Shown: positions 7,349 to 9,907 of the stretch, one piece after another
Layout: every line of letters starts with the position of its first letter
Numbering within the stretch: position 1 is the first letter of the stretch
Notes under the pieces: generated by a model
Database searches by the model: none
Seen by the model: only the letters and a program-made list of their open reading frames with translations
Told to the model about the DNA's origin: nothing
Program-made: the position numbers and the translations under genes
Source: a virus
Taxonomy: Duplodnaviria; Heunggongvirae; Uroviricota; Caudoviricetes
Virus record (IMG/VR): IMGVR_UViG_3300045988_151019
Length of the DNA stretch: 52,849 nucleotides
Direction: 5' to 3' (one strand)

Positions 7349-8050
7349 TTATTCTGATTCTCGCTCAAAAAATGAGCTGATAAGGGGAAGCCAATCCTCT
7401 GACACTTCGCGAGGTCGCGGTTTGCCGTGGAAAAAGATTATTCGGCAGTCTTTTGGTAATGCCCCATTCCCCCTGGAGTAACGCGCGCTCGCATATTTTG
7501 AACCAGGTTCCACAACATCGGCCTTGTAACTTACAAACCATCCTGGATACAGATCCTGAAATGCTGGTGTATCATCGCCCATAACCTTTCGTAAGAACCC
7601 CTGGTCACCCCAGCACTCAGTAGTGACACAACGAGAAATCCAACCTTCCGGATCTTGCCAGAATGAACTCCAGATATGCGCTTTAACACTATTTGGTATC
7701 CACAGGGCACCGCTGCCACGATATTGTGGATGGTAAAAATCCCTAAGCATGGTGAAGCTGGTTGGTGGATGCTCTAGGATTGGGCGTATATCACCGGCAA
7801 TAACCGTGTCCAAATCCAGATAGAACAGATCATCGGTTATATCCGGTCGGAACAACTCGATTTTCGCCCACCAGCCACGGCACTTTTGCCACTGGTTGAT
7901 CAATGGGACAACTTTGACGCCAGGTACATGTAAACGCTTCAGGTCTGTCAGGCAAATAATTTCATAGCCTTTTGGCAGTTGATTAACCAGCCACTGCACA
8001 TCGGAAGCGTTATAGTCACCACCAGAGCGAAAAACTAAAGCAATCTTCAT
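7349..8050 (-). CDS. GT-A-like (family 8-like) glycosyltransferase candidate
   Basis: [19 protein letters not shown] resembles the GT8 YLDxD(I/V)xxDIxxL nucleotide-sugar motif; 233 aa. Confidence 0.4.
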
Positions 8051-8739
8051 GCTGCACCATCACCTTTCACTTTCATCAATGTCAGGTTTCCGCAAAATAC
8101 GGCACCAGTGTCGATATACTGCTGATTCCAGAATGTCTTCGGGCTTTTCACCGGAGTGTGACCAAAGATAAAACGATCTGCGCCAGAAATTTCGCCACCA
8201 ATATCATCCATCGAATCACTGATACGCTCGCGCGCCCAGACAACGTTGAAAAGCGGCACCTCCTTACCGAATTGGTATTCATTATCCGGATAGTCGGCAT
8301 GGGCTATAACGATAGTTTCTTGCCCGGTGTTCAACTCAATGATATAGGGCAGACGCTTTACCAGCTCCACCAGCGCCCTGGCTAATATTTCCTGATCAGT
8401 GTCCAGCATGAAGAACCATTGTCCGCCATTCATTAGCCAGTTATTCACGTTGCCATCAGGACTTAACGCATCGAGCATCAACCGCTCATGGTTCCCCATC
8501 ACTGCCCTGAACCAGGGCATCTGCAATAGTTCCAGACATTCGACATTTTCAGTACCGCGATCGATAAGGTCGCCGACCGATATCAGTAAATCCTGCGCCG
8601 GGTCAAAATCCACACGATGGAGTTCGGACATCAGTCTGGTGTAGCAACCATGCAGATCACCAACAACCCAGACATTCCTGTATTTGGTACCGTCGATACG
8701 GTGATAAATTGTGGGTGCCATCATGTATTCTTCAGCCAT
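8047..8739 (-). CDS. ppp: Ser/Thr protein phosphatase (lambda PPase / calcineurin-like metallophosphoesterase)
   Basis: GDLHGC, GDLIDRG and GNHE motifs; 230 aa. Confidence 0.8.
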
Positions 8740-9347
8740 TCTTTAAGAGTCATCTGCGGAATACCTCCCATTTTCCCGCATGAAACAACGTCAATCTGTT
8801 CACGCGCAGACTGGAATAACAAAGGCAGGTGACTTAGATTTTTTGGCGTGCCGCCGGAGTGAACGCGTAGTTCTTGCGTAGCGTCAACGCCCACCAGAGC
8901 TACATGTTTGAATCCGATATGGAAAGCCAGGTTCAGAGCACCATATGCACTATTGCCGCTGGCAATTTCATTCTCATCTTCGCAAAGGCCGAAATGTGCG
9001 GACCAGCGCCACGCCCACCACTCGGGAGAATTCGTATTTTTTGGCTCCATGCCGCGTTCAGCCACACGACGGAAGCACAGAACGCCATCTCTGACTTCAC
9101 GTTCTTTAACATCGGGTAGTGCCATGCAATAACAAACACCACGGCGACGGCGGCCACGACCAACGCGCCGCATATTGTCTGGCGATGGATCAAGTGTGAA
9201 AAAATAAGAAGCGCGGTTCAGCCAGTCGATGGCCCCATTGACCGCTATAATCGGCACTCCGCGCGGCGCAACAAAGTTTGCGGCGCTTGGGCCACTGCCG
9301 ACGATAATAACGCGATCACTGCCTCTAAATTTATTCTTGGGAAACAT
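8721..9347 (-). CDS. GSGPS-motif Rossmann protein, paralogue A (DUF115/MptE-like?)
   Basis: [34 protein letters not shown]; paralogous to 9245-9907. Confidence 0.5.
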
Positions 9348-9907
9348 TGAATTGCACTGCTCCTACTTGCATTCAAAATATGTAAATCTGCGTGTTTTTT
9401 GCGGGTATCCAGGAACTGCTGTTGCCATTTTGAAATAGACACCTGCGTTGGATTCCGTAGGGCTTGAGGGTGCGCGCCATGCCAATGAAGGCCGTTTTGC
9501 AGAGAACAGTCATAGCCGACTAATACCACTACTTCAGCCCCTGATTCAGCAGCCAGACTGATAGCCTGCGCGCCGCTATTTACCCCTTCCGCCGGTCCAC
9601 AATATCGCCTGTACTCCAACGAAAATGATTTCGCCGCCGCCAGGTTGGCTGTCACTTTGCGGAATCTCCCTCCCGGTATGGTGGATCCGTATTGCTTCCA
9701 CCATGACAAATCACCGGCGTATAAGGCATAAATGTCATCGAACATCTGCCAGGAATTGTTAACCGCGATGATTGAACAGCCAGTTTTTTCTATAGCAGCA
9801 CAGTCCTCACGAGTGAGTGACGGACCGCTACCGACACAAAAAACAGTCCTAGTCGCCCTGCGTGGTATGTTCATTCTCAGCTGCAAATTCAGCCTCCAGG
9901 CGAGCAT
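9245..9907 (-). CDS. GSGPS-motif Rossmann protein, paralogue B
   Basis: VFCVGSGPS, IIAVNNS, NSGAQAISLA, VVLVGYD; same motif order as paralogue A. Confidence 0.5.
   Translation of the reverse strand: MLAWRLNLQLRMNIPRRATRTVFCVGSGPSLTREDCAAIEKTGCSIIAVNNSWQMFDDIYALYAGDLSWWKQYGSTIPGGRFRKVTANLAAAKSFSLEYRRYCGPAEGVNSGAQAISLAAESGAEVVVLVGYDCSLQNGLHWHGAHPQALRNPTQVSISKWQQQFLDTRKKHADLHILNASRSSAIQCFPRINLEAVIALLSSAVAQAPQTLLRRAECRL

Follow-up and report, generated by a model that had tools for sequence, protein, structure and literature searches.

Gene content of the locus

The window, a stretch of 52,849 nucleotides, is 99.2% identical to the genome of phage P1 (AF234172). A first-pass annotation had described within it four adjacent genes, encoding a GT8-like DXD enzyme, a lambda-type protein phosphatase and two diverged paralogues that share a series of motifs, the whole bounded by operator motifs. 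The four ORFs are present in the ORF list of the window, all on the minus strand, and the motifs, the paralogy and the operator motifs were all found as described. The genes are pmgQ, ppp, pmgP and pmgO, and the small pmgN is the first of the operon (Table 1). The gene pmgO shares 103 nt with pmgP and 59 nt with pmgN. The start of pmgN lies at 10004 in the P1 annotation and at 10046 for the longer, P7-style ORF; this gene was not seen beside pmgO-pmgP-pmgQ trios other than those of P1-like elements. The maximum hydropathy over 19 residues is at most 1.40 for each protein of the block, which indicates that none has a membrane segment and that all are soluble.

P1 is among the most used phages in genetics, and these four genes have been labelled "putative morphogenetic function" since 2004. 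The P7 annotation calls pmgO, pmgP and pmgQ "head morphogenesis", and database names such as "alpha-2,3-sialyltransferase" or "norphogenetic protein" are over-specific or meaningless. The main text of the P1 structure paper names none of pmgO, pmgP, pmgQ and ppp.

Table 1. Genes and regulatory features of the pmgN-pmgQ locus (positions in the window)
Feature	Position	Strand	Description	Source
pmgQ (P7 hdmD)	7349-8050	-	233 aa; soluble GT8-like, glycogenin-like glycosyltransferase, GT-A by homology	ORF and P1 annotation
ppp	8047-8739	-	230 aa; lambda-PP/NinI/PrpA-type Ser/Thr protein phosphatase, inserted at the P-Q junction in the P1/P7 clade	
pmgP (P7 hdmC)	8721-9347	-	208 aa; DUF115/Maf-like, nucleotide-sugar-transferase fold	
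pmgO (P7 hdmB)	9245-9907	-	220 aa; second, diverged DUF115/Maf-like paralogue	
pmgN (P7 hdmA)	9849-10046	-	Small ORF, first in the operon; phrog_2350	ORF and annotation
OpmgRb / OpmgRa (Op86b/a)	7282-7298 / 7331-7347	+ / -	With promoter PpmgR, control region of pmgR-pmgS	P1 and P7 annotation
Oppp (former Op83)	10048-10064	+	C1 repressor operator directly upstream of pmgN	P1 annotation
PpmgN	10077-10103	-	Predicted sigma-70 promoter within the 3' end of pmgM	P1 annotation
LPpmgL	10986-11004	-	Late (Lpa-type) promoter upstream of pmgL-pmgM	P1 annotation

Regulation of the operon

The P1 annotation was mapped to the window by adding 3000 to the locus coordinate. A pattern search for ATTGCTCTAATAA-type C1 operators with up to 3 mismatches found nine matches in the window, compared with 0.34 expected. 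Two of these, with 3 mismatches each, form the pair at 7282-7347 that had been taken as the boundary of the block. They are real C1 operators, but they lie downstream of pmgQ and serve the next operon, pmgR-pmgS. The operator of the block itself is Oppp, whose sequence, TATGCACTAATTAATTT, agrees by eye with 13 of the 17 consensus positions.

The strand read from the late promoter LPpmgL continues into the block. A promoter and terminator scan found no intergenic terminator-like site between LPpmgL and pmgQ; its terminator-like matches (8, compared with 3.9 expected) all fall within ORFs. The consensus promoter scan did not recover the annotated promoters, PpmgN included. With a C1 operator and a late promoter upstream of it, the pmgN-O-P-ppp-Q operon should, to judge from its sequence, be off in P1 lysogens.

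PmgQ, a GT8-like enzyme

PmgQ belongs to phrog_1962, "glycosyltransferase" (2.5e-128), and carries the same product name in RefSeq. The DXD motif expected of it is read from the sequence as DLD at position 79. As a single sequence its best PDB match is the Skp1 alpha-GalT 6mw5, a GT8 enzyme, at E=0.086. The family profile matches the same structure at E=1.2e-6, glycogenin-1 at 7.8e-4 to 1e-2 and the GT8 chain 5gvv at 4.3e-3. All 21 PDB matches of the profile are GT8, and no LPS-type GT8 chain occurs among them at E<=10.

The residues K63, D79-L-D81, G148-D-Q150 and H208-G-x-P-R-P213 are invariant in the family (21 diverse homologues for K63, D79, D81, G148, D149 and Q150). K63, DLD and GDQ align to YTK, DAD and GGDQG/GDTG of the GT8 structures. 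The C-terminal motif (H208-G-x-P-R/K-P213) aligns with H..G..KPW, although in the HMM alignments its His, which would be the third metal ligand, is shifted by two positions. Pfam assigns no family to PmgQ at E<=1, PF01501 (Glyco_transf_8) included, 41 homologues are likewise devoid of precomputed Pfam domains, and NCBIfam gives no usable match. Membership of the WaaJ family was rejected: against the single WaaJ sequence, hhalign aligns the DXD and the C-terminal motif with a probability of only 32%. Taken by homology, the profile matches support PmgQ as a GT8-like enzyme of the glycogenin/Skp1-GalT branch, presumably retaining and of the Mn2+/DXD type. Glycogenin and Skp1 alpha-GalT act on protein-linked glycans and build them on proteins in the cytoplasm.

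PmgO and PmgP, two DUF115/Maf-like paralogues

PmgO carries GSGPS at position 26, IIAVN at 46, NSG at 110 and GYD at 131, and PmgP, in identical order, GSGPS at 17, IIAVN at 33, NSA at 132 and GVD at 153. The GSGPS, NSG/NSA and GYD/GVD motifs are close to invariant in both families, and invariant histidines follow the GxD strand (H141, H143 and H146 in PmgO; H173 in PmgP). Direct BLASTP detects similarity only over the N-terminal 36 residues (E=0.003). The family profiles, on the other hand, align over 161 columns (hhalign, probability 98.1%, E=8.9e-14), which takes the paralogy claimed from the shared motif order beyond chance. Seemingly "short" PmgO homologues without the nucleotide loop were an artefact of demanding an ATG, GTG or TTG start.

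With PF01973 the two P1 proteins score 23.7 (PmgO) and 20.9 bits (PmgP), both below the gathering threshold of 34.6. Their relatives P0092 (44.6) and P0257 (44.1) pass it, and many homologues have a precomputed PF01973 domain. By these profile scores, both families are members of PF01973 and the two P1 sequences are divergent ones. In the PDB, the single sequences gave chance-level matches and the family profiles found no solved relative, so that the profile searches proposed to confirm the folds succeeded for PmgQ, with GT8, but not for this pair, and a comparison of folds was needed. The predicted structures of both have the fold common to Maf, MptE and Cst-I, with the Maf glycosyltransferase as the best structural match (158-165 residues aligned). 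The queried assignment as "DUF115/Maf/MptE-like" is thus borne out by fold and by family profile. A fold search of the viral BFVD models found DUF115-like proteins to be common in uncultured phages, without function, and a literature search on DUF115 or MptE-like proteins in phages found nothing relevant.

The sole Pfam match carries the name MptE-like, which would fit a different chemistry. PmgO and PmgP might be pyrophosphokinases resembling MptE or thiamine pyrophosphokinase, or SteA-like nucleotide-binding proteins, activating a small hydroxymethyl or hydroxyethyl compound in a small-molecule pathway with PmgQ and methyltransferases. We consider this improbable, since the structural alignment with MptE covers 130-136 residues, fewer than that with Maf, and the G-S-G-P-S loop followed by ...AVN... 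is, as we take the motifs to be equivalent, the arrangement of Cst and Maf. The constant partners, moreover, are a GT8 enzyme, other glycosyltransferases and FkbM/TylF sugar-type methyltransferases.

The donors of Maf, Cst-I and WaaZ are ulosonic acids activated with CMP, namely pseudaminic or legionaminic acid, sialic acid and Kdo. NCBIfam holds nothing usable for either protein save the WaaZ model TIGR04437, which PmgP matches at E=0.1 with 11.9 bits (cut-off 200) and PmgO does not match; P0092 also gives a faint match. E. coli WaaZ itself matches PF01973 over the full domain (6.9e-7) with a sub-threshold score. When the PmgO and PmgP profiles are compared with the single WaaZ sequence by hhalign, the expected motifs align at probabilities of 22% and 9%. 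On these values membership of the WaaZ family was rejected, and the kinship, as far as the alignments reach, is of superfamily level only. CMP-Kdo as donor is for this reason a deduction and not a result.

The trio outside P1

A first scan of viral contigs gave P1-like loci only and was repeated with a divergent query. pmgP, the best conserved member, and pmgQ form an invariant core, joined by pmgO in about three quarters of the loci. They occur in P1-like elements, a Citrobacter rodentium prophage, the 116-kb coliphage IME392, HK97-like prophages of Zhongshania, Methylophilaceae and Brevundimonas, and an element of Sinomicrobium (Bacteroidota). The jumbo phages XacN1 (385 kb), CM1, RAS14 and Xoo-sp13 also carry the module; these jumbo phages were assumed to be obligately lytic. 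The three genes are naturally fused as O-P (P0092), P-Q (P0220, P0290) and Q-P (P0310), and to methyltransferases as Q-P-methyltransferase (P0272), methyltransferase-P (P0307) and TylF methyltransferase-Q (XacN1 ORF373). The cargo of the P-Q junction is always glycan-tailoring: this slot collects sugar O-methyltransferases (class-I SAM, FkbM, TylF) and extra glycosyltransferases (GT-A, GT2, GT1). As read from gene order and fusions, pmgO, pmgP and pmgQ are one conserved, fusion-linked module, found in phages, temperate as well as jumbo, that infect Proteobacteria and Bacteroidota.

The 146 flanking ORFs from 25 non-redundant non-P1 loci include 7 Phage_capsid, 6 portal, 5 head completion and 5 head-tail connector proteins; terminase, prohead protease and lysis genes are found among them too. 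The 25 families listed for them include none for LPS or O-antigen. In phages other than P1, translational coupling links the trio into head or lysis operons, and stop-start overlaps with connector genes occur (e.g. L126). Its neighbours are lysis genes in the C. rodentium, L004 and Buttiauxella loci, and capsid, portal, head-completion and connector genes in the HK97-like prophages. In five Pseudescherichia genomes the trio lies in a chromosomal adhesin island, not in a waa cluster. There pmgO is downstream of a 1166-aa inverse autotransporter (IAT_beta and 7 Big_1 domains; 59 bp away in L092), and pmgP and pmgQ are placed between the autotransporter and further Big_1 proteins. In XacN1 the gene after the trio encodes a 1088-aa protein whose PKD (Ig-like) match is weak and falls below the Pfam cut-off; the XacN1 paper has nothing on ORF372-375. 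Every host seen for the trio is a diderm with Kdo-lipid A, a pattern equally compatible with LPS as acceptor and with Kdo as donor.

Late expression beside head and packaging genes could also serve a modification of the phage nucleic acid, by base glycosylation or hypermodification ahead of packaging. Phage DNA glycosyltransferases are a known class, and MptE-type chemistry targets hydroxymethyl groups. This role was nevertheless rejected as extremely improbable: among the ORFs mapped for the small HK97-like prophages, no gene for a hydroxymethylase or for base modification was seen, the chromosomal trio of Pseudescherichia sits with adhesin genes, and P1 DNA is an ordinary restriction substrate with methylation only.

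Lysogenic conversion of the LPS core had been the first hypothesis for the block. In its fuller form, PmgO and PmgP would extend the conserved Kdo/heptose inner core with Kdo-type residues and PmgQ would supply it with a hexose, all at the inner leaflet of the cytoplasmic membrane. The outer-core glucose, the P1 adsorption site, would then be truncated or masked, either in lysogens or late in infection against the loss of progeny on debris. The P1 receptor is indeed core glucose, and overexpression of WaaZ truncates the outer core. WaaZ, the Kdo III transferase, shares the PF01973 superfamily and its model is faintly matched by PmgP and P0092; GT8 includes the LPS-core enzymes WaaJ and WaaO, the former aligning with PmgQ at two motifs; and Kdo-lipid A is present in every host seen. 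The genomic setting points elsewhere. A C1 operator and a late promoter stand ahead of the operon, head and lysis operons enclose the trio and overlap with it, and jumbo phages taken as obligately lytic carry it. Neither a membrane nor a flippase component is present in the block, the flanks list no LPS families, the Pseudescherichia trio keeps company with adhesins, and PmgQ is nearer to glycogenin-type than to LPS-type GT8 enzymes, the WaaJ probability being low. In the last minutes of infection, furthermore, little new LPS would be expected to reach the surface. LPS remodelling is accordingly rated as unlikely in general, and a change of the LPS in P1 lysogens by this block is unlikely as well.

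The phosphatase Ppp

Ppp shows the three PPP motifs (GDLHG at 27, GDLIDRG at 56 and GNHE at 82) and a Metallophos domain (Pfam, 8.7e-16; 59.4 bits for a cut-off of 21.5), as expected of the lambda-type protein phosphatase first proposed. It matches NCBIfam PRK11439 at 5.9e-82, belongs to phrog_246, "NinI-like", and is given 64% identity to lambda-PP in the P1 record. Its scores remain below the equivalog cut-offs of PrpA (274.9 for 326) and PrpB (241.2 for 332). By these models Ppp is a member of the PPP family and not an equivalog of the host PrpA or PrpB.

None of the more than 25 trios outside the P1/P7 clade, syntenic P1-like phage-plasmids included, contains ppp. The more distant P1-like phage-plasmids have the order pmgM-O-P-Q-pmgR-pmgS, with P abutting Q, and phage D6 has ppp in a nin-like gene set with no O, P or Q adjoining. 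This distribution bears on the proposal that the four genes jointly interfere with kinase-based host defence, in which Ppp would strip the phosphates set by a defensive Ser/Thr kinase and the transferases would modify the same or a related target. In P1 the four genes adjoin and overlap translationally, Ppp is a bona fide PPP-family phosphatase and the operon is early/C1-controlled. A joint role is very unlikely all the same, and the anti-kinase function was rejected, because the trio occurs without ppp and D6 has ppp without the trio. A literature search linking NinI-type phosphatases to defence found none, and single deletions show neither an antirestriction nor a plating defect (PMC9024508).

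A putative cytoplasmic glycan-building module

The reading that we put forward, tentatively and at somewhat less than an even chance, is that pmgO, pmgP and pmgQ form a self-contained cytoplasmic glycan-building module, likely with a protein acceptor, and that, jointly with this, ppp is an independent phosphatase gene of the lambda NinI type which entered the P-Q junction in the lineage of P1 and P7. The operon would be silent in the lysogen through the C1 operator Op83 and transcribed after induction, probably also from LPpmgL. PmgO, PmgP and PmgQ would then draw on host nucleotide sugars. CMP-Kdo, the sole CMP-ulosonic acid of E. coli K-12 and common to all diderm hosts of the trio, would be the donor for the DUF115-like pair, and a UDP-hexose that of PmgQ. 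Together the three enzymes may make a short glycan on a cytoplasmic acceptor. To judge solely from gene neighbourhood, a protein would be the most likely acceptor, and among phages a virion (head) protein would be the likeliest. Laboratory plaque formation would not require the modification, and the genes of the P1 block are non-essential (PMC9024508, PMC10695390).

A virion acceptor is suggested by the position of the trio within or beside late structural or lysis operons, a feature of virion-glycosylation cassettes. The adhesin neighbours in Pseudescherichia, the PKD-like protein in XacN1 and the nearest solved relatives of PmgQ, glycogenin and Skp1 alpha-GalT, point to a protein acceptor. 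On the other hand, sites beside capsid and lysis genes are also frequent insertion sites of morons. Glycosylation goes unmentioned in the paper on the P1 virion proteome. A bolder version, which we regard as improbable, would make the trio an unrecognised diderm/phage protein-glycosylation system that places CMP-Kdo- and UDP-hexose-derived sugars, often with a methyl cap, on head proteins and on the inverse-autotransporter adhesins of Pseudescherichia. If this were true, P1 virions would be glycosylated and the first case of protein-attached Kdo would be at hand.

The recognition of the module turns an unannotated block into a concrete and cheap experiment, as deletion mutants exist. With a virion protein as acceptor, virion glycosylation would no longer be confined to actinobacteriophages but would include phages of Gram-negative bacteria, which is relevant to phage immunogenicity and to delivery vectors based on P1; with LPS as acceptor, a new lytic-phase mechanism of receptor masking would result. 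The regulatory reading of the locus is also corrected, the operators at its edge being assigned to the next operon, and ppp is set apart from the trio.

Comparison with known systems

The closest structural relatives of PmgO and PmgP, the Maf flagellin glycosyltransferases (DUF115/PF01973, 5mu5), have about 600 aa with extra N- and C-terminal flagellin-binding domains, whereas PmgO and PmgP are bare catalytic-type domains of 200 aa. The identity is 15-17%, PmgO and PmgP have no link to flagellin, and the Maf donors, pseudaminic and legionaminic acid, are not made by hosts such as E. coli K-12. The Campylobacter sialyltransferases Cst-I and Cst-II (CAZy GT42) and, by fold, the animal GT29 sialyltransferases are comparable too. 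There is no sequence-level match to solved GT42 chains, however, nor CMP-Neu5Ac in K-12, and the RefSeq name "alpha-2,3-sialyltransferase" is an over-specific transfer. E. coli K-12 WaaZ shares PF01973 and, by hhalign, the core motif "...A..LAy.LG...i.l.G.D", and its donor CMP-Kdo is the one CMP-sugar owned by all hosts of the trio. It differs in its 283 aa and in being encoded in the waa cluster; no copy of the trio was found in such a setting.

PmgQ shares with glycogenin, Skp1-GalT and 5gvv the aligned Lys (TK/aK), the DXD and the GDQG; the C-terminal H..G..(K/R)P aligns too, but with the conserved His offset by two. It is shorter (about 210-235 aa in the family) and lacks the PF01501 match. 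Ppp resembles lambda NinI (lambda-PP), PrpA and PrpB in its Metallophos domain, PRK11439 and phrog_246 matches and three PPP motifs.

At the level of the whole module, the virion glycosylation cassettes of mycobacteriophages are similar: their soluble phage glycosyltransferases are encoded next to structural or lysis genes, are expressed late and are not needed for plaque formation. They are not known to contain a trio of DUF115 and GT8 enzymes, belong to actinobacterial hosts and have capsid and tail proteins whose glycosylation was shown by experiment, whereas a glycan on P1 virions is a prediction. Two phage glycosyltransferases have also been mentioned as suggesting capsid glycosylation (PMC11256854). 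The gtrABC-type O-antigen glucosylation and O-acetylase modules offer the analogy behind the LPS hypothesis, being phage glycosyltransferases that alter the phage receptor. Those modules are expressed from the prophage, lie near att/int and comprise a flippase, a bactoprenol glycosyltransferase and a periplasmic-face transferase, whereas the block in P1 is under C1 control and encodes soluble proteins throughout, and its counterparts in other phages lie inside late operons.

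Genes and regulation of the block

The window is phage P1, and the block corresponds to P1 genes that are already known and partly annotated. Positions 7000-10200 share 99.2% identity with P1 mod749::IS5 c1.100 (AF234172) and 98% with P7, in which hdmA, hdmB, hdmC, hdmD and ppp carry the product name 'head morphogenesis'. The four genes, the motifs, the paralogy, the phosphatase domain and the C1 repressor motifs described in the first-pass annotation were all recovered, and its fold assignments (GT8-like PmgQ, PPP-type Ppp, DUF115-type PmgO and PmgP) are borne out by profile, motif and family evidence. 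The overlaps of pmgO with pmgP (103 nt) and of pmgN with pmgO (59 nt) are unusually long; the C-terminal tail of PmgO, encoded in the former, is poorly conserved among homologues.

Coordinates of the features in the window and, where an L-number is given, within retrieved related loci
Feature	Coordinates	Strand	Remarks
pmgQ	7349-8050	minus	hdmD in P7; RefSeq 'glycosyltransferase'
ppp	8047-8739	minus	same name in P7; RefSeq 'metallophosphoesterase'
pmgP	8721-9347	minus	hdmC in P7; RefSeq 'norphogenetic protein'
pmgO	9245-9907	minus	hdmB in P7; RefSeq 'alpha-2,3-sialyltransferase'
pmgN	9849-10004 or 10046		small ORF preceding the four genes; hdmA in P7
pmgO/pmgP overlap	9245-9347
pmgN/pmgO overlap	9849-9907
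PmgO Cys/His cluster	9467-9508		residues 134-146
pap	5206-5712		annotated 'acid phosphatase'
pmgM	10071-10649
Operator Op86b	7282-7298
Operator Op86a	7331-7347
Operator Oppp/Op83	10048-10064		upstream of block; P1 annotation and sequence
Promoter PpmgN, predicted	10077-10103		upstream of block; P1 annotation
Late promoter LPpmgL	10986-11004	same as block	P1 annotation
Further C1-operator matches	5190-5206, 10955-10971, 21378-21405, 24911-24927, 39560-39576, 41220-41236		overlapping divergent pair at 21378-21405
Lone PmgQ homologue, Pantoea (L005/L006)	6001-6633
ppp homologue, phage D6 (L184)	3990-4682
Trio and adhesin island, Pseudescherichia (L092)	1345-9794
PmgO-homologue start region (L128)	4728-4962		no canonical start
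PmgO-homologue start region (L129)	638-872		no canonical start
PmgO-homologue start region (L126)	573-720		no canonical start
PmgO-homologue start region (L098)	5222-5573		no canonical start
PmgO-homologue start region (L109)	5225-5366		no canonical start
PmgO-homologue start region (L110)	4878-5139		no canonical start
PmgO-homologue start region (L127)	5425-5719		no canonical start

The C1 operators Op86a and Op86b, confirmed by pattern search, had been taken as bounding the block. The motifs are real, but according to the P1/P7 annotation they control, with PpmgR, the downstream pmgR-pmgS operon. Upstream of the block lie Oppp/Op83, PpmgN and LPpmgL, and a terminator scan found no intergenic terminator-like site between these control elements and the block. 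Seven more C1-operator matches with at most two mismatches occur in the window.

Deleting pmgO, pmgP, ppp or pmgQ singly, or knocking them down by CRISPRi, causes no plaquing or antirestriction defect (PMC9024508; PMC10695390). The knock-down of pmgN was scored essential (EOP 1.4e-2), an effect that is not simple polarity, since neither the pmgN deletion nor the knock-downs of the downstream pmgO to pmgQ were scored so (PMC10695390). Literature searches found no paper addressing the biochemistry of the four block gene products. Judged by sequence, neither Pap nor PmgM looks morphogenetic: Pap is similar to PF25109, the HAD phosphatase domain found in polynucleotide kinase-phosphatase (7.8e-12), and in PmgM a VRR-NUC nuclease domain is matched weakly (3.1e-4, short of the Pfam threshold).

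Transferase folds

All the motifs previously listed for PmgO and PmgP were found, in identical order in both proteins. Direct BLASTP between the two is marginal (E=0.003); hhalign comparison of their family alignments, each of 20-22 diverse homologues, gives 98.1% probability (E=8.9e-14, 161 columns), and the paralogy is, on these alignments, real and old. Both P1 proteins match PF01973 (DUF115/MptE-like) below threshold, and relatives exceed it. The E. coli LPS enzyme WaaZ, the Kdo III transferase, also matches PF01973 over the whole domain (6.9e-7), so that the superfamily joins transferases whose donors are CMP-activated ulosonic acids. Comparison with WaaZ by NCBIfam and hhalign did not place PmgO and PmgP within the WaaZ family. 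The PmgO family has invariant Cys134, His141, His143 and His146 (G-Y-D-C-S...H-W-H-G-x-H), a cluster that looks like a metal site and is absent from the PmgP family; the confidence of the PmgO model is lowest there (pLDDT 57-74).

PmgQ has no Pfam match. Its family profile retrieves only GT8 enzymes from the PDB, among them Skp1 alpha-galactosyltransferase (1.2e-6), glycogenin (~1e-3) and the GT8 chain 5gvv (4e-3). The family invariants K63, D79-x-D81, G148-D-Q150 and H208-G-x-P-R-P coincide with the GT8 Lys, DXD, GDQG and C-terminal H..G..KPW motifs, the His lying two positions off. Against the LPS GT8 enzyme WaaJ, hhalign gives only 32% probability; the closest solved relatives act on protein-linked glycans. 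A lone PmgQ homologue (49% identity) lies between lpdA and acnB in the chromosome of Candidatus Pantoea floridensis; the genes called at this locus include neither a PmgO or PmgP homologue nor any phage gene.

The conserved module

Homologue searches and locus retrieval show that, of the homologues of PmgO, PmgP and PmgQ (O, P and Q), P and Q always occur as a pair. Q is present in every locus whose contig extends far enough beyond P, and O in about three quarters of the loci, most commonly in the order O-P-Q. Besides P1-like phage-plasmids, the module is carried by a C. rodentium prophage (between lysis cassette and terminase), a Sinomicrobium (Bacteroidota) element, the 116-kb coliphage IME392 and the jumbo phages XacN1, CM1, RAS14 and Xoo-sp13. 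In the phage contig L004 it immediately follows holin, endolysin and Rz, with O and P fused into one 376-aa protein, and in a Buttiauxella prophage it adjoins endolysin and Rz genes and comes right after a short hydrophobic ORF, a possible holin gene. In HK97-like prophages (Zhongshania, Methylophilaceae, Brevundimonas and metagenomic relatives) it lies between major capsid and head-tail connector genes, frequently with stop-start overlaps.

Natural fusions tie all the parts together (O-P, P-Q, Q-P, Q-P-methyltransferase, methyltransferase-P and TylF methyltransferase-Q). The insertions between P and Q are glycan-tailoring functions throughout: class-I SAM, FkbM or TylF methyltransferases and additional GT-A, GT2 or GT1 glycosyltransferases. 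In our own estimate, O-P-Q is probably a glycan-building module. The module, its fusions, the variable methyltransferase/glycosyltransferase slot and the association with head operons appear not to have been described before.

In the HK97-like prophages the reading frame of the PmgO homologue continues without a stop across the N-terminal A-S-G-P-S loop, with no ATG, GTG or TTG ahead of the motif. An ORF of about 95 aa after the capsid gene, with an S/T/P-rich tail and a terminal KRGRPRK-like motif, overlaps this frame, and a -1 slip from it would enter PmgO. A textbook heptamer, A_AAA_AAG, lies 45 nt upstream in L128 and L129; the remaining loci have weaker heptamers or none. These homologues may be made by programmed frameshift fusion or non-canonical initiation.

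Among 146 flanking ORFs of 25 non-redundant non-P1 loci, Phage_capsid is the most frequent Pfam family (7), ahead of Phage_portal (6) and of the head completion and head-tail connector families (5 each), followed by terminase, prohead protease and lysis proteins; none of the families listed belongs to LPS or O-antigen synthesis. A role of the trio in the LPS inner core, which has the WaaZ match on its side, is the main rival reading and an unlikely one. The lysogenic conversion of the LPS core proposed earlier is disfavoured by regulation, context and distribution.

The phosphatase

Ppp has a Metallophos domain (8.7e-16), the motifs GDxHG, GDxxDRG and GNHE and strong similarity to PrpA/PrpB-type phosphatases. 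Its gene occupies the P-Q junction in the P1/P7 clade only (L090, L130). Five remoter P1-like phage-plasmid contigs retain pmgM-pmgO-pmgP-pmgQ-pmgR-pmgS, with Q starting where P ends. In phage D6 a ppp homologue, 90% identical at the nucleotide level over 630 bp, is surrounded by small genes resembling those of the lambdoid nin region, with no trio alongside, and ppp therefore moves independently of its P1 neighbours. The preferred reading of ppp is therefore a NinI-type gene, mobile in its own right, that inserted into the variable slot of the cassette. This independence disfavours the suggestion that phosphatase and transferases act as a team against kinase-based defence.

Proposed acceptor and function

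Five Pseudescherichia genomes (L092-L096) carry a chromosomal, non-phage trio around an adhesin island, in an arrangement kept in all five. O comes directly after the gene of an inverse autotransporter of 1166-1178 aa (IAT_beta and seven Big_1 domains), an intimin/invasin-like adhesin, and P and Q separate this gene from those of more Big_1/RCC1 proteins; the trio is thereby interleaved with the adhesin and two further Big_1-domain proteins. The gene after the XacN1 trio encodes a protein of 1088 aa whose match to a PKD domain is weak and falls below the Pfam cut-off. All block proteins are soluble, judged from the P1 sequences. The Pseudescherichia adhesins, the XacN1 neighbour, the relatives of PmgQ and this solubility combined with the head-operon placement favour a cytoplasmic protein as acceptor; for phages a virion protein is the probable candidate.

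A lytic-phase, fusion-linked cassette of three enzymes would thus assemble a glycan on a protein. Taken as a whole chain, this is the best-supported reading, and it is put forward tentatively. The O-P-Q trio can be likened to the phage-encoded glycosylation cassettes, a known kind of system.
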